From the NCBI GenBank assembly GCA_016206155.1, contig JACQSC010000002.1:15473-79472 (forward strand): DNA of 64,000 nt, given 5' to 3'. Each line of letters begins with the position of its first letter. Position 1 is the stretch's first letter. The DNA is from Candidatus Uhrbacteria bacterium. GTDB taxonomy: Bacteria > Patescibacteriota > Patescibacteriia > JACQRZ01. Positions 96 to 56,640 of this stretch are shown here, piece by piece. Below the pieces are notes generated by a model. That model saw nothing but the letters and a program-made list of their open reading frames with translations, did no database searches and was not told where the DNA came from. The position numbers and the translations under genes were made by a program.

Positions 96-1448
96 ATGAA
101 CACCAGCATCTTCAAAGCATACGACATTCGCGGTATTGTTCCATCAGAAATCAACGCGCAAACCGCGGTGCATATCGGCCGCGCGTTCGCAACCTTCCTT
201 CGGCGGGAAACCGGCAAGAAGCGGATTGCCATTGCGGTTGGACAGGACAATCGCGTCCACTCGCCTGAGTTATTTTCCGCGCTCGTTTCCGGCCTTGTTT
301 CCGCTGGTGCGGACGTTGTTGACATCGGCCTTGCGTCCACGCCATTTTTTTACTTCGCGGTTTCGCACCTTCGTCTCGATGGCGGAATCAACGTCACCGC
401 ATCGCACAATCCTCCTGAGTATAACGGTTTCAAATGCGTACGCAAAAACGCCGAACCAATCGGCGTTGAAACGGGCTTGCGTGAAATTCAAGCGCTGTTT
501 GAAAAAAGCAGCGCGCGCGTTAGTGTCCGGAACGTCATGGATGAATACATCCAAAAAAATCTCAAACTCGCGCCAGTCGGCGATTGGTCAGGGCTCCGCG
601 TCGCTATTGATACCGGCAACGGCGTCTCCGCGCTCATGATCAAAGATCTGATCGCCGCGACAGGGCTTGCGGTCATACCATTATATTTTGAACTCGACGG
701 CACGTTCCCCAATCACATGCCCAATCCACTCAAAGAAGAAAATATCGCCGCCTTAAAGAAAACCGTTGTCGACGAGAAGTGCTCATGTGGCATAGCGCTT
801 GACGCCGACGGTGACCGCTCAATTTTCATCAATGAAAAGGGAGACGTGGTTCCCTCGGATCTCTTGACGGCGCTTGTCGCCGGACTCTTGCTCAAAAAAA
901 ATCCCGGTGAAAAAATCTGCTATGACGCAACATCAAGCTGGACAACTCGCGAGGTCATCAAAGAGTGCGGAGGCGTCCCGATCATCTCGCGCGTAGGCCA
1001 TTCTTTTATCAAAGAAACAATGCGCAATGAACATATTCTGTTCGCCGGGGAGCGGAGCGGGCATTTCTATTTCCGCTTTAGCAACCTTGGCTATTTTGAA
1101 GCGCCGCTCCTTGTCATGATCGCGGTCCTCAACCACATGGCAGAGACCAACCAACCGCTTTCCACCATTATGGCGCCGTTGCAGCGCTATTTTGCAACCG
1201 GAGAAATAAATTTTGAAGTGCACGACAAAAGTGCGGCGATGAAAAAAGTTGAAGAGCGCTATGCTGATGCAAAAAGCGTTTCATATCTTGATGGCATCAC
1301 CGTGGAATATGACGATTGGTGGCTCAATCTTCGCCCATCAAACACCGAGCCGTTATTGCGGCTGAATCTCGAAGCGCGTACCGCTGAATTGCGCGACAGC
1401 AAACTCCGAGAGCTCACCGTGCTCATAACGAAGAATCAGGAATTATGA
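96..1448 (+). CDS. phosphoglucomutase/phosphomannomutase family protein (alpha-D-phosphohexomutase)
   Basis: Full-length ORF. N-terminal 'FKAYDIRG' and the active-site phosphoserine loop 'TASHNPPEYNGFK' are typical of PGM/PMM/GlmM enzymes. Confidence 0.85.
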   Translation: MNTSIFKAYDIRGIVPSEINAQTAVHIGRAFATFLRRETGKKRIAIAVGQDNRVHSPELFSALVSGLVSAGADVVDIGLASTPFFYFAVSHLRLDGGINVTASHNPPEYNGFKCVRKNAEPIGVETGLREIQALFEKSSARVSVRNVMDEYIQKNLKLAPVGDWSGLRVAIDTGNGVSALMIKDLIAATGLAVIPLYFELDGTFPNHMPNPLKEENIAALKKTVVDEKCSCGIALDADGDRSIFINEKGDVVPSDLLTALVAGLLLKKNPGEKICYDATSSWTTREVIKECGGVPIISRVGHSFIKETMRNEHILFAGERSGHFYFRFSNLGYFEAPLLVMIAVLNHMAETNQPLSTIMAPLQRYFATGEINFEVHDKSAAMKKVEERYADAKSVSYLDGITVEYDDWWLNLRPSNTEPLLRLNLEARTAELRDSKLRELTVLITKNQEL

Positions 1449-1597
1449 ATCAAGAATTAAGCAAGAAAATGCAATCATTTACTGATTTCAGAGCATGGCT
1501 AGAAGGTCATGTGTTTGTTCTCATAAAATTACGAATGGCTTAATCAAGGGCACAAAAACAATCATTCGTAATTCTTAATTCGTAATTCATAATTCTG
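1440..1597. mobile_element. MITE-like repeat, copy A: AT-rich heptamer-repeat termini around a ~110 bp core; carries a 32-codon ORF (1445..1543) overlapping the mutase stop as ATGA
   Basis: Termini 'gaattatgaatcaagaattaag' and 'attcgtaattcttaattcgtaattcataattc' are inverted heptamer arrays. The core reappears reverse-complemented at 3431..3674. Confidence 0.6.
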
Positions 1598-1598
1598 C

Positions 1599-2411
1599 AT
1601 GACCATCGGCGTATTCGATTCTGGTATCGGGGGACTCACGGTGTTAAAGCACCTAGTGCGTGTGTTGCCTGAATACGACATGCTCTACCTGGGCGATAAT
1701 GCGCGGGCGCCCTACGGTGACCGATCCGCGGATCGCATATATGAGTTCACTCAGCAAGCGGTTGCTCATCTTTTTGAAGAAGGGTGCGCGCTGGTTATCC
1801 TTGCGTGCAACACCGCCTCATCCGAAGCTCTGCGCCGACTGCAACAAGAGTTCCTGCCGTCACACTTTCCCGACCGGCGGATCTTGGGCATTCTTATACC
1901 CGCGGCGGAACTCATTGAAAAAAAATACGCGCAGAAGAACATTGGCATTATCGGAACGCGCGCAACCGTGCAATCAAACGCGTATCTTCGCGAGATTGAA
2001 AAACGCGGCATGGCGCAAAAAAAAGTTACTCAAATCCCGTGCCCCCTATTAGTCCCATTGATTGAAGAGGGGTGGCAGGATACACCGCCCGGCCGGCAGA
2101 TCCTAAAAAAATACCTCTACCCGCTCAAGCAAAAACAGGTTGATGTTTTGGTCCTTGGCTGCACGCACTACGCGCTCATCAAGGATCGCGTTGCCCGAAT
2201 TATGGGAAAGAAGGTCGCCGTCATAGATACCGGATCCGCGGCGGCCGCATCATTAAAAAAATATCTATCCTGTCATCCCGAAATTGAAAAAACTCTCTCA
2301 AAAAACAGCGCCGTCCGCCTACTCTCAACCGATACGTCCGAGCGCATTTGCAGCCTCGTTCAGCGTTATTGGGGTAGCGCGCTGCCAATAGAACAAATTA
2401 CCCTTGAGTAA
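1599..2411 (+). CDS. murI: glutamate racemase
   Basis: Motifs 'VFDSGIGGLTV', 'LACNTAS' and 'LGCTHY' are the two catalytic-Cys regions of MurI. Confidence 0.9.
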   Translation: MTIGVFDSGIGGLTVLKHLVRVLPEYDMLYLGDNARAPYGDRSADRIYEFTQQAVAHLFEEGCALVILACNTASSEALRRLQQEFLPSHFPDRRILGILIPAAELIEKKYAQKNIGIIGTRATVQSNAYLREIEKRGMAQKKVTQIPCPLLVPLIEEGWQDTPPGRQILKKYLYPLKQKQVDVLVLGCTHYALIKDRVARIMGKKVAVIDTGSAAAASLKKYLSCHPEIEKTLSKNSAVRLLSTDTSERICSLVQRYWGSALPIEQITLE

Positions 2412-2412
2412 T

Positions 2413-2440
2413 ATGTTCGACATCAGATGTCGAACATTTG
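2413..2440. terminator. bidirectional hairpin terminator between convergent murI and trpS
   Basis: Perfect 11 bp inverted repeat 'atgttcgacat cag atgtcgaacat' sitting between two convergent stop codons. Confidence 0.5.
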
Positions 2441-2443
2441 GTG

Positions 2444-3424
2444 TCACTCATAGAGACCGATGCGTCTTTTAATCATGATCATTTTTTTCTCAGCGTGCTT
2501 CTTCGCGCGCGATGCGCCATCGGCGAGAAGGGCGCGCAGATTATTCTCATCCCCTCGATACTGCCCATAGCGTTCCTGAACGGGTGCAAGAAACTCAATT
2601 AGGACTCTTGCAAGGCCATCCTTAAACTCTTTGTACCCTCCTTGGGCATACGCTTTTTCAATATCGGATATCGCTTGGCCAGAGAGCAGATGATAGATGG
2701 TCAAAAGATTGGCGAGCGCCGGTTTCTTCTTTGCGTCAAAGAGGATCTCGCGCCCCGAATCCGTTACGGCACGCTTGATTTTTTTCTTCACTAAGTCAGG
2801 CGTATCAGAAAGAGCGATATATCCATCGACCGATCCTGTCTTCTCCATTTTTTTAGCAGGGTTGTCTAGCGCCATAACGCGCGCGCCATGTTTCATGAGC
2901 ATGCTTTTAGGCACCGTGAACGTCTCGCCAAAACGCCCATTGAAGCGCCGCGCAAGCTCGCGCACAAGTTCAACGTGCTGTTTTTGGTCTTCGCCAACGG
3001 GTACGCCCTCAGTATCATAGAGAAGAATATCGGAAGCCATCAAGACGGGATAGTCAAACAAACCCATATTGATGTTGTCAGGGTTGCTCTTGCTCTTCTC
3101 TTTGAACTGGTGCATTGCTTTTAGCTCGGAAATTTTTGCAATGGTGTTCAGTATCCAGCCTAACTCCGCGTGCGCCGAAACGTGCGATTGCACAAAGAGC
3201 GTACTCTTCTTCGGGTCGAGACCAAGCGCGAGATACCATGCCGCCGCGTCAAGCGTGCGCCTCCGCAATTCGGAAGGGTCAATCGCTACGGTCAACGCGT
3301 GAAGATCGACAACGCAATAGATGCACTCATGCGCATCTTGCAGCGCTATCCATTGAGAGAGAGCGCCGATGTAATTGCCGAGATGCAGATCGCCGGATGG
3401 CTTGATGCCGGAAAAAATTCGCAT
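2444..3424 (-). CDS. trpS: tryptophan--tRNA ligase
   Basis: N-terminal 'GIKPSGDLHLGNYIGA' is the class I HIGH region. Size and overall layout fit TrpS. Confidence 0.9.
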   Translation of the reverse strand: MRIFSGIKPSGDLHLGNYIGALSQWIALQDAHECIYCVVDLHALTVAIDPSELRRRTLDAAAWYLALGLDPKKSTLFVQSHVSAHAELGWILNTIAKISELKAMHQFKEKSKSNPDNINMGLFDYPVLMASDILLYDTEGVPVGEDQKQHVELVRELARRFNGRFGETFTVPKSMLMKHGARVMALDNPAKKMEKTGSVDGYIALSDTPDLVKKKIKRAVTDSGREILFDAKKKPALANLLTIYHLLSGQAISDIEKAYAQGGYKEFKDGLARVLIEFLAPVQERYGQYRGDENNLRALLADGASRAKKHAEKKMIMIKRRIGLYE

Positions 3425-3430
3425 AGGTTG

Positions 3431-3674
3431 GAATTAAGAATCAAGAATTACGAATTAAGAATTACGAATGATTGACTTCGTGCCCTTGATTAACCATTCG
3501 TAATTTTATGAGAACAAACACATGACCTTCTAGCCATGCTCTAAGATCAGTAAACGATTGTATCTTATTCCTGCTTAATTCTTGATTCATAATTCTTAAT
3601 TCTTCATTCTTGAGATCAGTAAACGATTGTATCTTATTCCTGCTTAATTCTTGATTCATAATTCTTAATTCTTC
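3431..3674. mobile_element. MITE-like repeat, copy A', inverted relative to 1440..1597, with an internal ~65 bp tandem duplication (3545..3613 and 3614..3674)
   Basis: 'ccattcgtaattttatgagaacaaacacatgaccttctagccatgctc' is the exact reverse complement of the copy A core. The unit 'gatcagtaaacgattgtatcttattcctgcttaattcttgattcataattcttaattcttc' occurs twice in tandem. Confidence 0.6.
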
Positions 3675-3720
3675 GTACTATACAGAGTAGATAATAATAG
3701 AGCGCCAACGCCTCCTTAGA

Positions 3721-5613
3721 TTAAACCTTGATAATCACCGGCAATACCATCGGCCGTTTCTCAGTGCGTTTGAATAGAAGCAATCCGACATCATCGCGAA
3801 TACGGTTGCGCACCGGCGACCAATTCTCAACATCATTGCAGGTATATCCGTCAACAAGCTTGCGCACCATACCGCGCACTTCGGCGATCAAGCGCTCGGA
3901 TGTCTTAACATAGACGAATCCGCGAGAAATAATATCGGGAGATCCCACAAGCTTTCCGTCCTTGTCAACGGCGGCAATAACCACAACCATGCCATCTTGT
4001 GCCAACACCTTGCGCTCACGCAGGACAACGTGCTCAATATCGCCAACGCCCAACCCATCAACCATCACGTTGTCAACTTTAATTTTTTCAGGGCTGATGC
4101 GTGCCGTTCCCGTCTGATCAAATTCAATTATCGTTCCGATGCCGATAACAAAAAGCGATCGGTCGTCCCACCCCATGGTTCGTGCGAGCTCGGCGTGGTG
4201 CACAAGCATATATCGCTCGCCGTGGATCGGCATAAAGTATCGCGGACGAACCAATCCAAGCATCAACTTCAGCTCCTCGCGATATCCGTGGCCCGAGGTG
4301 TGCACGTCAAACATCTTGTTATAAATCACGTTTGCGCCAAGGGTGTACAACTCGTTCATGAGATTGGTCACCGCACGCTCATTGCCCGGAATCGGCGAAG
4401 ATGAAAGGATGATCGTATCCTTGGGCTGAATCTTCACGTGCTTATGTTCGCCTTTTGACATCCGCACCAACGATGATGTCTCCTGTCCCTGGCTTCCGGT
4501 AGACAAAATAACGACGCGCTCATCGGGAACGTTCCTCAGTTGGTCAATTTTTATCAGCGTTCCGCGCGGCATTTTCAAATATCCCAAGTTTGCGGCGGTG
4601 GTGAGCACTTTTTCCATACTCATACCAGACACTGCCACTTTACGATTCAGATCAACGGCGGCATTGATAACTTGCTGAATGCGACTGATGAGGGAGGAAA
4701 ACGTGGAGACGATAATACGGCCCGGGGCCTTTGCGAGAAGAGATTCAAGGTTTGCTTGAATGTCTTTCTCAGACTGACAATATCCCGGCACCTCCGCGCG
4801 CGTGCTATCAGAACACAACAACAACACTCCCTCTTCGCCGAGCCTGGCAATTTTCCCAAACTCTGTCGGACGCTGATCCTGCGGAGTGTGGTCAAACTTC
4901 CAGTCACCGGTATGGATAATGGTGCCAACCGGCGTGCGCACCGCAACGCCAACGCTATCGGGAATATTGTGGTTGACACGGAAAAAGTTGAGGCGAAAAA
5001 CGCCCAGCTGCAATGAGTCATCAGGATGAACCTCGATACAGCGCACATGGCGCGTCAAATTAAACTCTTCCAGTCGGTCACGAAGCATGCCAAGCGTCAA
5101 ACGGGTGCCATAGACCGGCGGAGACCCAATATCCTTAATAAGATAGGGAATGGCCCCCATGTGGTCGAGATGGCCATGCGTGATGATAATACCTTTCAAT
5201 TTTCCCTTGTGCTGTTTGAGATACGACGTATCGGGAATGACAAAGTCAATGCCTGGCATGTTCTCGGTGGGGAACATGACACCCATATCAATCACGACAG
5301 CGTCATTGCCATATTCAATGACCATCATATTACGACCAAACTCCCCGATCCCCCCAAGCGGAATCACGCGCAATTTGGCGTGGTCCAAGCGCGGCGCGCC
5401 TCTGCGACCGAGGCCTGATTGCCGTGGCACCCGGGTGCGCGAAACCACTTTTGGCCGCCCATATCCCCGCAATCGCGAGGACGCGTTTGATAATGATGCG
5501 CTTCTCGTCGCTACGGCGAGAGAGGCCGCTGGTTCAGAAACATGTTGTGCTTCCATGAAATAATGCTTTACAGCGTTATAAATAATACAGCTTTGATAGT
5601 AATCGACCATCAA
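3721..5613 (-). CDS. rnj: ribonuclease J (metallo-beta-lactamase/beta-CASP) with an Arg-rich N-terminal extension
   Basis: 'IPLGGIGEFGRNMMVIEYG', 'ITHGHLDHMGAIPYL' and a beta-CASP region. The true start is uncertain; MEAQ at 5556 or upstream are both possible. Confidence 0.8.
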   Translation of the reverse strand: MMVDYYQSCIIYNAVKHYFMEAQHVSEPAASLAVATRSASLSNASSRLRGYGRPKVVSRTRVPRQSGLGRRGAPRLDHAKLRVIPLGGIGEFGRNMMVIEYGNDAVVIDMGVMFPTENMPGIDFVIPDTSYLKQHKGKLKGIIITHGHLDHMGAIPYLIKDIGSPPVYGTRLTLGMLRDRLEEFNLTRHVRCIEVHPDDSLQLGVFRLNFFRVNHNIPDSVGVAVRTPVGTIIHTGDWKFDHTPQDQRPTEFGKIARLGEEGVLLLCSDSTRAEVPGYCQSEKDIQANLESLLAKAPGRIIVSTFSSLISRIQQVINAAVDLNRKVAVSGMSMEKVLTTAANLGYLKMPRGTLIKIDQLRNVPDERVVILSTGSQGQETSSLVRMSKGEHKHVKIQPKDTIILSSSPIPGNERAVTNLMNELYTLGANVIYNKMFDVHTSGHGYREELKLMLGLVRPRYFMPIHGERYMLVHHAELARTMGWDDRSLFVIGIGTIIEFDQTGTARISPEKIKVDNVMVDGLGVGDIEHVVLRERKVLAQDGMVVVIAAVDKDGKLVGSPDIISRGFVYVKTSERLIAEVRGMVRKLVDGYTCNDVENWSPVRNRIRDDVGLLLFKRTEKRPMVLPVIIKV

Positions 5614-5645
5614 AAGCCAGAATAATAGTTAAAGAAAATAGCAAT

Positions 5646-5729
5646 TGCCGCGGGTGGGACTCGAACCCACACATCCTTGCGAACACATGGCCCTGAACCA
5701 TGCGCGTCTACCAGTTTCGCCACCGCGGC
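5646..5729 (-). tRNA. tRNA-Leu (anticodon CAG)
   Basis: Cloverleaf: 7 bp acceptor stem GCCGCGG/CCGCGGC, anticodon stem CATGG/CCATG, loop TTCAGGG, long variable arm, T-loop GGTTCGAGTCC. No CCA is encoded. Confidence 0.85.
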
Positions 5730-7503: not shown

Positions 7504-7511
7504 ACCCTGAT

Positions 7512-7545
7512 CGTAACTCGTAACTCGTAACTCGTAACTCGTACG
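7512..7545. repeat. tandem heptamer (cgtaact) x4.5, immediately upstream of the substrate-binding-protein start
   Basis: Read directly: 'cgtaactcgtaactcgtaactcgtaactcgtacg'. Confidence 0.9.
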
Positions 7546-8754: not shown

Positions 8755-8807
8755 AAAAGCAGTTCGTAGTTCGTAGTTCTTCTTTCTGCGAACTCATCAA
8801 CCACGAA

Positions 8808-10311: not shown

Positions 10312-13131
10312 ATGCAGCAACAATCGATTGTCATTCGCGGATGCCGCGTCAATAATTTAAAAAACGTTTCGCTTGATATTCCCCACAACGCGCTTGTTGT
10401 CTTCACGGGATTGTCGGGATCGGGAAAATCGTCTTTGGCGTTTGATACAATTTATGCCGAGGGACAGCGCCGATTCATGGAGAGCCTCTCAAGTTTTACC
10501 AAGCACTTTCTCGAAAACATCGACAAGCCTGACGTCGAGCGCATCGAGGGGCTTCCCCCCACGATCGCGATTGATCAACGCACCACATCCTCTTCGCCGC
10601 GCTCAACAGTCGGAACCGCTACCGAAATGTACGACGCCCTTCGCCTCCTCTTTGCTCGCGCGGGGACGCCACATTGTCCGCTCTGCGGCATCGAAGTTTC
10701 AGCGCGGACACGCCAACACATCATCCATGACGTGGGACAGCGCATTAAAAAGGGGGGTGCCGCTATCACCATTGCCGCCCCGCTTAAAAAAGGAGAGCAT
10801 ATCGATATCGATCGCATGCTTGAGGAGCTGGAAAAATTATCAATTCACGCCCTCCGTATTGACGGGCAATCATACACGCTTGCCAATCTCATTCGAAATC
10901 CTCGTGCAATGGACGGCGTCCATACGATCGATGTTATTGTCGATCGATTCGAGCATCCCGCCGAGGATGCGCGTGATTCTGCGCGTATTGTGCGATCCGT
11001 TCAGCGTGCGCTCGAATTTGGCGATGGAACACTGTCCATCTGGGAAGAAAAAATAAAACAAGGGACCACTATTACCGAACGGCTTACCTGCACCCGCTGC
11101 GCCTATACCGTTGAGCATCTCGAGCCGCGCCATTTTTCTTTTAATAACCCCACCGGGGCGTGCTCCCCGTGCGCCGGTCTTGGTGTCTTGCACCAGTTCG
11201 ATACCGAGCTCCTGATTCCCAATCAAAAGCTTACTGTTGCGCAAGGTGCAATTCATCCTCTTTCAAAATTTTATGCAAACACCCATGGGCTCATGCAGTC
11301 CATCAATGAGTTGCTTGTGGCGCTTGGCACATCAAACAGCGCCCCTTTGGAGGCATATACAAAAAAACAGCGCGACGGCCTTCTGTATGGCTTGAAAAAA
11401 GAATCATCCTTTGGCGGAGTAATCCCGTATCTGCAGACGAAATACGAGCAAAGCGACTCCGAGTATATTCGCGCTGAGTTGGAGACATATATGCGAATCT
11501 CAACCTGCTCTTCGTGCCATGGCAAGCGTCTAAAAAAAGACGCCCTTGCCGTCACCGTTGCAGGACATTCGATTGATCAAATTGTCGCCATGCCAATCGA
11601 ACATCTTCTGAAGCTTTTTCGCTCCTGTTCACTGAATCAGTCCCAGCGCGCAATTACCGAGCCGATTGTCAACGAAATACTCAACCGCGCACAGGCGCTC
11701 ACCCGCGTAGGTCTTTCCTACCTTGTTCTGGACCGCAGTATGCCGACGCTCTCAGGCGGAGAAGCGCAGCGCGTCAAACTCGCAGCACATGTCAGCACGT
11801 CACTTGTCGGCGTTGTCTACTGTCTGGACGAACCATCTGTGGGACTCCATCCGCGCGACACCGACCATCTTATTGCAACACTAAAAGAACTGCAGGGACT
11901 CGGTAACACCGTTATTGTTGTTGAACATGACAAACAGATTATTCTCGCCGCAGACAGCATCGTCGACATTGGACCTGGCGCCGGAAAGCAAGGGGGCACG
12001 ATTGTTGCCCAAGGATCCGCGCAGGACATCGTGAAGACAAAAGCCTCGCTGACCGGACGATATCTTTCTGGCGCAAAAGCAATCGCGCTTCCTCGCAAAA
12101 AGCGCATTCGCACAGACGCGTGTATCGATCTTGTCGGTGTCCGTGAGCATAACTTGAAAAATATCTCCGTCCGCATACCAACCGGAGCGCTGGTTGCAAT
12201 TACCGGCGTGTCTGGATCGGGAAAATCAAGCCTGGTGATCGACGTGTTAAGCAAAGCCCTCATGAAGCGATTCTACCGCAGCAAGGATATTCCGGGCGCG
12301 CATGACGACATCCGCGGCCTGGAATATATTGACAAGGCAATCGTTATCGATCAGGCGCCGATTGGGCGGACGCCGCGCAGCAATCCCATCACCTATACGA
12401 ATATCTTCACCCCCGTCCGCGAGCTATTCACCAATCTTCCCGAATCAAAAATCAGAGGGTTTACACCCGGCCATTTTAGTTTTAATGTAAAGGGGGGGCG
12501 GTGTGAAACGTGCCAGGGCGAAGGAATGATGCGTATCGATATGCGCTTCCTTTCGGATGTCTATGTCGAATGTGGCGACTGCGGAGGAAGGCGCTACACG
12601 CCCGATGCCCTTGAGGTTCATTTTGAGGGACTCTCCATTGCCGACGTGCTTGACTTGACTGTCAGCGAAGCGTGCGAGGTTTTCAAAAAGATTTCCCCGA
12701 TCTATGATAAGCTAAAGGTGCTTGCCGATGTTGGTCTTGGGTACATTCGTCTTGGGCAACCGGCTCCCACATTATCCGGCGGTGAGGCACAGCGCATCAA
12801 ACTTGCCGCAGAGCTTTCTCGGCGATCAACTGGACGAACCCTGACCATCCTCGATGAACCAACCACCGGACTCCACTTTGAAGATATCCAACAACTTCTC
12901 GGGGTGCTCGATGCGCTTGTCGCAAAAGGGAATACCGTCCTGATGATCGAACACAACCTTGACGTAATCCGTTGCGCGGATTGGATCATTGATTTGGGAC
13001 CTGAGGGTGGAGAAGCGGGCGGATATGTCGTCGCGCAAGGAAGCCCTTCTGATGTTGCCAACAATCCGCAGAGTATCACCGGCCGCTATTTGAAAAAGGC
13101 GTTGATTGAGCAAGGAGCTATGAAGAATTAA
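10312..13131 (+). CDS. uvrA: excinuclease ABC subunit A
   Basis: 939 aa with two ABC ATPase modules ('[14 protein letters not shown]', '[11 protein letters not shown]'), zinc-finger Cys clusters and 'LSGGEAQR' signatures. Confidence 0.95.
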
Positions 13132-13204
13132 GAATCAAGAATTAAGAATTAAGCAAAGGGATATTTGTATTATTCGTAATTCTTGATTCGTAATTCTTAA
13201 TTCC
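13124..13204. repeat. heptamer-array hairpin (short MITE-like element) between uvrA and leuS
   Basis: 'gaattaagaatcaagaattaagaattaag' and, 22 nt later, its inverse 'cgtaattcttgattcgtaattcttaattc'. Same heptamer family as the 1440 and 3431 elements. Confidence 0.7.
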
Positions 13205-29659: not shown

Positions 29660-29751
29660 CTATTCTTTAATTACCACTTAAGTATATCCCCCCCCCCTCT
29701 GTGCACAAGTGGATAAAAATAATCAAAGGCTAAAACCGTCTTAGCCGTTGA

Positions 29752-29797
29752 AAAAGAGCTTCGCTCCGTCAGCTGGCGGAGCGAAGCTCTTTTTATT
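29752..29797. terminator. rho-independent (bidirectional) terminator downstream of groEL
   Basis: 15 bp perfect stem 'aagagcttcgctccg...cggagcgaagctctt' flanked by A and T runs. Confidence 0.75.
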
Positions 29798-29831
29798 TAA
29801 TGCCTAGAGCCTAATGCCTGATGCCTCTTTT

Positions 29832-33236: not shown

Positions 33237-33271
33237 AGGAACGTCAACAGTGCCGAATCAGGAATTATGAA

Positions 33272-34291
33272 TTATGAATAAGGGGTTTTCTGATTCCTGA
33301 TTCCGAGTTCTTCGCAGCGCTGTTCAAATCTCTCACTGATCTCTTGCCGCCGATCCGCGATGTGAAACTTCAGCACCGTGTCGGAAACGACAACTCCCGT
33401 CCCGACATTGGCGCGGTTGCGGATGGCGATGGGAAGAATGCGAAGCTGCAAAGATCGAAGTATTCGCTCAATCGCTCCGCCAAAACACCGGCTGAATATC
33501 TCCCCCGCATGCTTTATCCCATGCATGATAGGCGAAAGCGTGATACGACGCCGCGGAATCGGTTCACACGGAAATACGTTTGGAAGAATGTCGGTAATCC
33601 ACGCGTTTTTCAAAAAGAATTGATCGTACACACCATCATCATAAAGCGGAACGCACCACGCGACCCAGGATGCAAGATACACGTCAGGATCCCATCCATC
33701 CAGCTGGAGCGACGAGAGATCAAGAGCGCAATCTGAAATGAAAAAACTCAAGCAAAACGTATCGCGCTCATGGCCTTTTCTCGGACGGAGATTCAGTATA
33801 TGGGCAAGACTGGTACAAAAAAATCGTACCGTCCACACATGGCGTGCGCTGACAACAATAAAAAGATCAATATCGCTTTCATCGCGCGCGACATTCAGGC
33901 CCAGTGTGTTGCATACGCAAACCATGCGCACAAACGGTATGTGCGCAAGCAGAGAAACGAACCGCTTTGCCCGTATGTATTTTCGATACGAATAGATCAT
34001 ACGCCCTTGCCGACGCGCGCGCAAAAGATCGCGCCCAACAAGATAAAAGAGTCCCTCCCCCGATGAAATACGCGCGGCGAGAAACGGAGAAGATGCAAGA
34101 CAGTCGCGAATCATGAGTACGGTATAGGGCTCGCCCCTCTCTGTTGAGATAAGAAATTTCCAAATCTCGAAATCGGTTAGAGGGTATTCAAAGATATCAA
34201 AAAAAATAAGGGTTCGAAGTATTGCGCATTCAAAATGTGAGGGTGTTTCCGTTGACATAAGGCCTGTCATATTGTATCCTAATAAGCGCAT
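33272..34291 (-). CDS. hypothetical protein with a nucleotidyltransferase-like motif
   Basis: 'LGLNVARDESDIDLFIVV' resembles the pol-beta superfamily NTase motif. Otherwise unassigned. Confidence 0.3.
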   Translation of the reverse strand: MRLLGYNMTGLMSTETPSHFECAILRTLIFFDIFEYPLTDFEIWKFLISTERGEPYTVLMIRDCLASSPFLAARISSGEGLFYLVGRDLLRARRQGRMIYSYRKYIRAKRFVSLLAHIPFVRMVCVCNTLGLNVARDESDIDLFIVVSARHVWTVRFFCTSLAHILNLRPRKGHERDTFCLSFFISDCALDLSSLQLDGWDPDVYLASWVAWCVPLYDDGVYDQFFLKNAWITDILPNVFPCEPIPRRRITLSPIMHGIKHAGEIFSRCFGGAIERILRSLQLRILPIAIRNRANVGTGVVVSDTVLKFHIADRRQEISERFEQRCEELGIRNQKTPYS

Positions 34292-37148: not shown

Positions 37149-37177
37149 AGTGTAATTTCAGATTTCAGATTTTGAAA

Positions 37178-55582: not shown

Positions 55583-56640
55583 CCCCCTTTCACATCAAGT
55601 TTCTGCAACGGGGTAAAATCGTTTTTTTGCGCGTGAAAATATCCCGCCATGGCAATCATCGCGGCGTTGTCAGTGCAAAAGGCAAGAGCGGGAATGTGCA
55701 GTACACACTGTGGCGCTTCGCGCTCAAGATCAGTTTGCATCCGCGAGCGAAGCTCTGCATTTGCAACAACCCCTCCGCCCAACAATACACTCTTGACGCG
55801 ATACAGTTGAGCGGCCCGCGAAGTCTTTGCAACGAGTACATCAACCGCGGCTCGCTGGAATGATGCGCAAAGATCGGGGATTATTTCTTTTGAAAATATT
55901 TCTTGCGCATTTAGCTCGCGCACACAATAGAGTACCGACGTCTTCAGCCCACTGAAACTAAAATCGAAAATGCGCGTGCTATCATTTAAGAGCGCGCGCG
56001 GAAAGTCGAACCGTTGAGAATCACCGGATTCTGCATGGCGCGAAATCGCGGGACCGCCCGGATATCCCAGACCAAGTATTTTTGCCACTTTATCGAATGC
56101 CTCACCGACCGCATCGTCGAGTGTTTGGCCAACTTTTTTATACTTCCCATGATCGCGCATGAGAATAAGTTCGGTGTGCCCGCCTGATGCAATGAGTACC
56201 AATGCCGGAAACTCAATGTTTGAAATTTGAAATTTGAAATTTGAAATTCCTCCGACTGGTGGAAGCCAGTTGGAGTATAGATGTCCCTCAATATGGTTGA
56301 CGGCAACAATCGGAATATTCCAGAGAACGCTCAGCGCCCGGGCACACGCAACGCCGACAGAGACGGAGGTGACAAGTCCCGGGCCAACCGTTACCGCAAT
56401 ATAGTCAGGCCTGCCTGCCGAATGGGCAGGTTTTCTCTTTGAGTATGCTTTTGTGATGACTGCAAGTATTGAACCCACGTGATTGCGCGCGGCAACCTCG
56501 GGCACAACTCCGCCGGTTTTTGCATGGATGGATACTTGCGAAGCGCAAACATTCGATACGAGCAGAGCGCGCGCTCCACGCACCTCCAGCACAGCGGCGG
56601 CTGTTTCATCACATGACGACTCAATACCCAAAATGATCAT
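55570..56640 (-). CDS. tsaD: tRNA N6-adenosine threonylcarbamoyltransferase TsaD (Kae1/YgjD)
   Basis: 'MIILGIESSCDETAAAVL', 'HIEGHL', 'SGGHTELI'. Contains an in-frame heptamer-repeat insertion encoding 'ISNFKFQISNIEF'. Confidence 0.9.
   Translation of the reverse strand: MIILGIESSCDETAAAVLEVRGARALLVSNVCASQVSIHAKTGGVVPEVAARNHVGSILAVITKAYSKRKPAHSAGRPDYIAVTVGPGLVTSVSVGVACARALSVLWNIPIVAVNHIEGHLYSNWLPPVGGISNFKFQISNIEFPALVLIASGGHTELILMRDHGKYKKVGQTLDDAVGEAFDKVAKILGLGYPGGPAISRHAESGDSQRFDFPRALLNDSTRIFDFSFSGLKTSVLYCVRELNAQEIFSKEIIPDLCASFQRAAVDVLVAKTSRAAQLYRVKSVLLGGGVVANAELRSRMQTDLEREAPQCVLHIPALAFCTDNAAMIAMAGYFHAQKNDFTPLQKLDVKGGWEL
56219..56246. repeat. tandem heptamer (tttgaaa) x4 inside the tsaD coding sequence
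   Basis: Read directly: 'tttgaaatttgaaatttgaaatttgaaa'. Confidence 0.9.

Follow-up and report, generated by a model that had tools for sequence, protein, structure and literature searches.

The closest described counterparts of the locus reported here are the intervening sequences (IVS) of 23S rRNA genes. In Coxiella burnetii, three tandem heptameric repeats precede the start of the IVS open reading frame (ORF) for S23p, a 28-bp terminal stem is cut by RNase III, and the ORF has undergone reductive evolution and is probably untranslated (PMC4990558). We analysed a 64,000-nucleotide stretch of a Candidatus Uhrbacteria contig (JACQSC010000002.1, positions 15,473 to 79,472; hereafter the window), in which two copies of a short heptamer-bounded element, A and B, fill the operon spacers on either side of the genes murI and trpS. 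Sequence comparison indicates, at a probability that we put at roughly 80%, that both elements are internal-deletion remnants of a four-helix-bundle cassette of the PF05635/TIGR02436 family (S23p, Avd-like). As we read it, the element is an IVS-type S23p cassette that resides in mRNA spacers instead of rRNA and has been reduced by deletion.

The likeness to the 23S rRNA IVS of C. burnetii, Leptospira and others (PMC4990558) has several parts. The loop ORF is of the PF05635 family, as the remnant here probably was; tandem heptamers lie just upstream of the S23p start, and here the arrays called by Tandem Repeats Finder (TRF) overlap the ATG in A, B and relatives; terminal inverted repeats form an extended stem around the ORF (A, B and 52 full-length cassettes); and the ORF is reduced while the stem stays. 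Unlike the rRNA elements, A and B sit in protein-gene operon spacers and not in helix 9, 25 or 45 of 23S rRNA, their unit is ANGAATT where that of Coxiella is GACAGAT, their ORF is down to ~27 + ~19 codons, and RNase III cleavage is proposed for them by analogy. The remnant's ancestor probably falls in the family of PF05635/TIGR02436 proteins (PDB 2RLD, 2GSC) and of Avd from diversity-generating retroelements (DGRs): full-length relatives reach ~E = 1e-37 to PF05635 and match bAvd weakly, and heptamer-flanked members lie near 2RLD. Unlike PF05635 proteins, the window holds fragments only, and unlike the setting of DGR Avd, no reverse transcriptase or DGR template/variable repeat is found nearby.

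Two classes of non-coding repeats also resemble the elements. Short tandemly repeated repetitive (STRR) sequences of Cyanobacteria and TAACTGA repeats (PMC4679880) are likewise tandem heptamers in spacers, often a few nucleotides from a start codon, patchy across phyla and sometimes read into by an upstream ORF. The unit here is ANGAATT/AATTCNT, not TAACTGA or CCCCAAT, and its inverted pairs enclose a specific gene or remnant, whereas a single indirect TAACTGA repeat is all that has been reported (PMC4679880). Miniature inverted-repeat transposable elements (MITEs) and palindromes of the repetitive extragenic palindromic (REP) type are also short, non-coding intergenic hairpins, internal-deletion derivatives and potential recombination substrates; unlike MITEs, the elements have a parent without transposase, show no recognisable target-site duplication, occur at very low copy number and end in heptamer arrays rather than unique inverted repeats. 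The family-wide architecture of the cassette appears to be undescribed except for the Coxiella IVS, and literature searches for heptamer strings or PF05635 returned nothing more general.

The inverted elements and the probable gene remnant within them

Features of the locus are collected in Table 1. The inverted pair consists of three sets of arms, 1460-1538/3494-3572 (79 nt, 91%), 1540-1596/3437-3493 (57 nt, 91%) and 1428-1467/3637-3676 (40 nt, 93%), and a 61-nt core has 2 exact occurrences in the window against 0 expected, which bears out the heptamer-terminated pair around murI-trpS described in the first-pass annotation. The alignment of A and B spans 173 columns, of which 15 are mismatches and 4 are gaps (89% identity). 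The differences leave a 49-nt identical run at 1490-1538 that is longer than evenly spread differences predict (permutation p = 0.023). Each copy is sense to its flanking genes, and the convergence of the two operons puts A and B in opposite orientations. The repeats also account for the breaks in short-read contigs, which fall inside the elements on either side of murI-trpS.

Several details of the first description had to be adjusted. Element A was placed from 1440; its homology to B begins at 1428, so that the last seven pgm codons (1428-1448, TKNQEL*), encoded by the 5' heptamer array of A, are element sequence, and pgm of relatives ends ...IIKNN* without an array. The extra tandem duplication in B is present, with a unit of 69 nt and not ~65 bp, and it spans the 5' array and the first ~16 codons. 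An ATGA over the upstream stop codon was claimed for both copies and holds for A (pgm stop 1446-1448) but not for B, where rnj ends at 3721, ~60 nt before the first ATG.

The heptamer pattern has 19 matches in the window against 0.01 expected. In A, the arrays at 1428-1461 and 1564-1597 pair into a long AU-rich stem (fold z = -4.25; B, z = -3.4), and the mini-ORF ATG sits within this predicted stem. The core also contains a weak terminator-like hairpin (1493-1512), and such sites are no commoner in the region than in shuffled sequence. Rfam returned no family and no rRNA on the window at either the gathering cut-off or E <= 1, blastn of the element against plasmids and phages gave no match, and a wobble-degenerate 29-nt core pattern had 0 matches in 185,579 GTDB representative genomes and 0 in JGI metagenome contigs.

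Table 1 Coordinates of the elements, their parts and the genes around them in the window (asterisk, stop codon).
Feature	Position	Strand	Basis and remarks
pgm, phosphoglucomutase/phosphomannomutase family	96..1448	+	ORF; orthologues carry PF02878-PF00408
Element A, probable decayed heptamer-bounded four-helix-bundle gene cassette	1428..1597	+	fills pgm/murI spacer; inverted-repeat arms, alignments to B and L156
A 5' array, (A/C)NGAAT(T/C) units	1428..1461	+	TRF period 7 at 1431-1461; holds mini-ORF ATG
Mini-ORF A, 32 aa	1445..1543	+	codons 6-27 (1460-1525) match PF05635 N-terminus and first half of helix 1
Putative C-terminal remnant, different frame, SHKITNGLIKGTKTIIRNS*	1519..1578	+	stop codon inside 3' array; translation, profile, DNA block
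A 3' array, AATTCNT units, reverse complement of 5' array	1564..1597	+	ends 1 nt before murI ATG (1599)
murI, glutamate racemase	1599..2411	+	ORF; PF01177
trpS, tryptophanyl-tRNA synthetase	2444..3424	-	ORF; PF00579 in orthologous contigs
Element B, probable second decayed copy	3431..3679	-	fills rnj/trpS spacer, sense to rnj and trpS
B 3' array	3431..3470	-	ends 6 nt before trpS ATG (3424)
Mini-ORF B, 42 aa, internal start of 65-aa ORF 3462-3659	3462..3590	-	profile positions 3-30
Perfect tandem duplication, 69-nt unit (3544-3612 / 3613-3681)	3544..3681	-	TRF 1.9 copies, 100% matches
rnj, RNase J	3721..5613	-	ORF; Pfam annotation of orthologues; upstream neighbour of element B
Bare hairpin, same heptamer type as A/B	13123..13203	+	between uvrA and leuS; -37.7 kcal/mol, z = -6.2
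Short weaker hairpin, same heptamer type as A/B	33255..33304	-	between two co-directional genes

Both mini-ORF peptides are correct as originally quoted. A 1-nt indel at 1539 (GGCTTAATC vs GGTTAATC) alters the frame, and because of it mini-ORF A ends at 32 aa while B reads 10 more codons to 42 aa. When all 1,842 window ORFs were searched (hmmsearch) with a profile of 59 unique full-length relatives, only three matched: B at E = 1.9e-11 (positions 3-30), A at E = 1.7e-6 (positions 4-25) and a further frame of A, FQSMARRSCVCSHKITNGLIKGTKTII, at E = 0.077 (positions 100-125). This last frame keeps the final ~19 codons of the lost gene (HKITNGLIKGTKTIIRNS) and continues to ...IIRNS, with its stop within the 3' array as in full-length genes; in B, the 1-nt deletion relative to A shortens it to HKITNG*. 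The DNA of A aligns to that of L156, a full-length cassette, in two blocks, 1433-1510 with 2989-3063 and 1522-1590 with 3334-3402. The gap between the blocks measures 270 nt in L156 against 11 nt in A, which argues that the core is an internally deleted, frame-shifted four-helix-bundle gene; the deletion junction is common to A and B, and ~270 nt of the gene are gone. A complete four-helix domain (~105 residues) is not found, since only positions ~3-30 and ~100-125 are represented, in different frames. Judging from these alignments, the mini-ORF is the first ~27 codons of the lost gene, a pseudogene stub and not a peptide gene.

A number of observations weigh against this assignment. Searched alone against Pfam, NCBIfam and PDB, the peptide gave no match; the Pfam model starts at the DL of ...TDLxAW, and the overlap of ~13 residues accounts for that negative. 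The mini-ORF was likewise missed by a profile made from xanthomonad PF05635 members, and Smith-Waterman scores against this xanthomonad subfamily, compared with shuffles, reached p ~ 0.03-0.05 only when the array-coded leader was included and were not significant without it. The relatives were recruited through an 8-residue pattern, K[IM]QSFTD[LF], so that the match there is by construction, and the C-terminal profile match is weak on its own (E = 0.077). Support independent of the bait comes from AW.EGH..VL, the C-terminal frame and the two DNA blocks.

Full-length cassettes in other genomes

Relatives were found by back-translating the conserved stretches of both mini-ORFs and scanning metagenome contigs for the resulting pattern, which recovered at least 99; ~64 of them are complete ORFs of 125-136 aa when extended to the stop codon. 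In the full-length relatives, which come from groundwater metagenomes, the sequence runs M..(N)KIQSFTDLxAWKEGHKLVLxIYKxTKxFPKEE...SQMRRAAVSITSNIAEGFSR...VHKLINGLIKSSK..ILNS*, with a consensus that includes SNIAEGFSR...NGLIKSSK. Three were scanned against Pfam; their E-values to PF05635 are 4e-33 to 1e-37, and they match bAvd weakly. When representative genomes were scanned for heptamer arrays only, at least 120 loci came up in many phyla, and in three of these (L036, L054 and L115) the inverted arrays enclose an ORF of ~120 aa that belongs to PF05635/TIGR02436 (E = 1e-27 to 1e-32) and lies near PDB 2RLD.

Among the full-length cassettes, 52-53 unique loci carry tandem heptamers over the start codon and a complementary array over the stop codon. 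The units vary, with at least 30 canonical forms (e.g. ATGAATT, TGGAATT, GTAGTAT, AGTATNT and AGATTTA), and each 3' array matches its own 5' array, the mean duplex being -29.3 kcal/mol for cognate and -18.1 kcal/mol for non-cognate combinations (p = 5e-15). Cognate arrays thus stay complementary across units, a covariation that favours pairing. The upstream neighbour is co-directional in 44/51 loci and the downstream neighbour in 37/50, which places the cassettes in sense within operons, and the next start codon is mostly 0-60 nt past the cassette stop. Full-length relatives encode the four-helix-bundle protein only, and no transposase was met among them. A GC-rich version is found in Rhodanobacter (L137, 1481-1927), where a complete PF05635 gene lies between accB and accC in the order (GGGAATN)x4, ORF, (NATTCCC)x4, accC ATG, the ATG abutting the 3' array. 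In L183, L154 and L157, cassettes have decayed independently and retain their arrays; L183 has ATGAATT arrays as in the window and several internal deletions.

Xanthomonad family members begin M(x)NRE[SL]xKRPHEDLxVW, the leader being array-coded. In L187, L189, L190 and L192 the four-helix-bundle ORF lacks a stop codon and is continuous, in frame, with a long ORF behind it (478-479 aa together), which could be either a natural fusion or recurrent stop loss in the 3' array. Arrays of at least 3.5 RATTCNT units occur in at least 120 species representatives, mostly as short hairpins or solo arrays without a gene; their hosts are Bacteroidota, Cyanobacteria, Ignavibacteria, Chloroflexota, Acidobacteriota, Verrucomicrobiota, Planctomycetota, Spirochaetota, Gammaproteobacteria, candidate phyla radiation (CPR) bacteria and one Methanophagales archaeon (L095). 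A Chloroflexia metagenome-assembled genome (L111) has (AATTCNT)n-loop-(ANGAATT)n hairpins between consecutive ribosomal-protein genes at 3034-3116, 4793-4865 and 5617-5706, one before an L14-like and one before an L6-like ORF, and all of their loops end TTAATTG...CAATTAA.

Heptamer-bounded PF05635 cassettes occur in CPR bacteria, Bacteroidota and Gammaproteobacteria, and bare arrays in many more phyla. It is conceivable, though we consider it unlikely, that such cassettes are a widespread and hitherto undescribed class of operon-embedded selfish elements of which the 23S rRNA IVS is an rRNA-resident special case. If so, a pentameric Avd-like protein might recognise its own 4-5 heptamers for RNA processing or spread, and decayed cassettes would leave behind functional stems for RNA processing as well as substrates for recombination, through which operons are reshuffled as at murI-trpS. 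For the window itself the outcome is mostly deflationary: there is no micropeptide gene to annotate. The family-wide pattern bears on the old question of the nature and spread of S23p/IVS elements. It combines the IVS gene family, co-varying stems with dozens of units, sense placement in operons and recurrent decay to hairpins, and is also associated here with a natural two-gene inversion. It offers substrates for RNase III assays and protein-binding tests, and is worth more follow-up than the modest feature in the window.

The murI-trpS inversion, a proposed history and its alternatives

The contigs of relatives were reached through MurI homologues. Five of them (L129, L130, L134, L135 and L136) share the window's order, pgm and murI on one strand facing rnj and trpS on the other, with both junctions empty at 2-19 nt; junctions this minimal in relatives argue that the elements are insertions. 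The closest relative, L131 (74% identity), has the same AATTCNT array as the window directly before murI and (GCGTTTA)x4 before trpS. The latter, at 2040-2077, is a different heptamer type at the junction that B occupies in the window, and L131 also carries, at 855-1057 between murI and trpS, an insert of ~200 nt with a tRNA-like end (…GGGTCCACCA). Two other relatives with the window's gene order, L132 and L133, have unrelated palindromes at one junction. These are near-perfect, with 23-bp and 26-bp arms, and lie in the trpS/rnj (L132, 4267-4334) and pgm/murI (L133, 4115-4169) spacers. Inserts that form hairpins seem to have landed in both spacers repeatedly.

In L124-L126 and L127/L128 the order is instead rnj then murI, facing pgm then trpS, such that exactly murI-trpS is inverted and the outer genes are unchanged. 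The inversion is seen in several independent assemblies, with breakpoints in the two spacers that bear the elements in the window. In the MurI tree these loci form one clade (88% identity) nested among lineages of ancestral order, which points to a single derived inversion; the ancestral orientation is that of the window and of the outgroups L134-L136. Because murI and trpS are two convergent genes, inverting them leaves each co-directional with the operon that it joins, and the change would be cheap for the cell.

The first-pass annotation proposed that the block could be inverted by homologous recombination. The 49-nt identical tract, long enough for such recombination, and the inversion in relatives lend this circumstantial support, but the window itself is in the ancestral state. 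That the elements brought about the murI-trpS inversion is likewise a circumstantial suggestion from sequence. Counting against it, the inverted clade has only degenerate heptamer traces at its junctions, with no long inverted repeat left between the two and no recognisable copy of this element; the link is accordingly no more than plausible. The junctions of the related murI loci L124-L136 show no trace of a four-helix bundle. Compared with the empty L129 sites, no target-site duplication is recognisable at the junctions, where divergence is high.

We propose the following history for the remnants. Ancestral cassettes of ~125 aa would have inserted in sense into the short pgm/murI and rnj/trpS operon spacers. 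The deletion probably arose once, because its junction is common to both copies, and either gene conversion or a move of the shortened element would have carried it to the second site; the identical tract of 49 nt would favour recent sequence exchange between the copies. The peptide would have no function of its own. The ~30-bp AU-rich stem formed by both arrays would persist in the polycistronic RNA and might serve as an RNase III-type processing site or as an insulating hairpin between cistrons; we give the processing role, taken alone, somewhat less than even odds, and its derivation by analogy from the rRNA elements tells against it. The inverted repeats of ~170 bp could recombine homologously and flip murI-trpS, leaving transcription direction relative to the upstream neighbours unchanged.

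The earlier suggestion that the peptide itself is conserved amounts to a real micropeptide gene, translationally coupled to the upstream gene via ATGA, and this we regard as very improbable. Both copies do keep an ATG-initiated ORF in which residues 17-32 are identical, the ATG of A overlaps the pgm stop codon, and the peptide has many database relatives; but those relatives are the N-termini of 125-136 aa PF05635 proteins and not short ORFs, and the identical stretch is identical in DNA too, which makes it uninformative on peptide selection. The remaining differences, first described as mostly synonymous or conservative, comprise one synonymous change (TCA/TCG) against four replacements (K>R, K>N, M>I and F>L) plus a 3-nt indel. 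The ATG lies in the predicted stem, no gene stop overlaps the ATGA in B, and the 1-nt indel gives A and B different C-termini. Frame-breaking changes, named beforehand as the observation that would speak against the mini-ORF, are found both in the out-of-frame joined fragments and in that indel between the copies. Searches point the same way: phmmer with the peptide against 1.84 billion representative proteins gave two matches (QNWLSGQVQVLIILSG and TDLRAYLQKSD repeats) in long repeat proteins, judged spurious, a word-indexed protein search gave no candidates, the exact mini-ORF peptides are absent from a collection of ~15 billion proteins, and a tblastn near-match in L073 is unrelated sequence. 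A possible though doubtful alternative is that the deleted element is an active, non-autonomous MITE-like element that copied itself into the second spacer, dependent in trans on whatever mobilises the full-length cassettes. The same deletion junction in both copies, two sites empty in relatives, terminal inverted arrays, contigs that break inside the elements as they would in repeats, and decayed cassettes recurring elsewhere are all consistent with such mobility. Yet the core is present only twice in 64 kb and, searched as a DNA pattern, in none of the representative genomes or JGI metagenome contigs; there is no recognisable target-site duplication, and the cassette family has no known transposase. 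Gene conversion between two once full-length copies explains the shared junction equally well and also fits the uneven spread of differences (p = 0.023).

The arrays could also be mainly translation-initiation or leader elements of the downstream gene, like TAACTGA/STRR repeats, with stem and remnant incidental. They end 1-20 nt before the murI, trpS and leuS starts, murI and trpS are without a Shine-Dalgarno motif, several solo arrays with other units stand 7-19 nt ahead of starts elsewhere in the window, and TAACTGA repeats are placed alike in Beggiatoaceae, Cyanobacteria and Bacteroidetes (PMC4679880). We nonetheless think this improbable, given that more than 50 cassettes keep 5'/3' complementarity by covariation, which points to pairing and not to a single-stranded leader, and that the 5' array precedes the cassette ORF rather than a host gene. 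Hardly credible is a programmed switch in which a site-specific recombinase inverts murI-trpS. Inverted repeats do bracket the block and both orientations exist among relatives; however, the flanking genes pgm, rnj, SBP_bac_5 and secG, in the window and in relatives, include no recombinase (the rest of the window was not scanned for one) and are housekeeping genes, SBP_bac_5 denoting a solute-binding protein gene. Each clade moreover has a fixed orientation, with a single change in the tree, inversion merely exchanges the upstream operon that feeds each gene, and the repeats are the probable remnants of a decayed gene. Decay of an IVS-type cassette by internal deletion remains our preferred account of A and B.

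Neighbouring genes and further arrays in the window

The window MurI is 100% identical to an NCBI protein of Candidatus Uhrbacteria, a CPR lineage. On the plus strand pgm is followed by murI and on the minus strand rnj by trpS, and the two operons converge. A strong Shine-Dalgarno-like AAGGAGG lies on the minus strand within 3682-3720, the ~40 nt between the rnj stop and element B, and no longer precedes any start codon; it may be a displaced trpS ribosome-binding site or the trace of an older insert.

Elsewhere in the window, the loop of the hairpin at 13123-13203 keeps only TTAAGCAA...ATTATTCGT, matching the inner edges of A and B, and the uvrA stop codon lies in its array; from sequence it looks like a cassette reduced to its stem. 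Many other period-7 arrays are present, with the units (TCGTAAC)x4.7, AAAGTTG, AGTTCGT, TAATGCC, ATTTCAG and (TTTGAAA)x4.3, at 7511-7543, 57-76, 8761-8779, 29798-29826, 37155-37172 and 56219-56248. These are mostly without an inverted partner, and several stand 7-19 nt before starts in spacers of co-directional genes; they could be remnants of other cassette types or an independent leader-type repeat. The TAATGCC array adjoins a perfect palindrome at 29751-29794 with 22-bp arms (AAAAAGAGCTTCGCTCCGTCAG/CTGGCGGAGCGAAGCTCTTTTT) and flanking A and T runs, which looks like a bidirectional intrinsic terminator.

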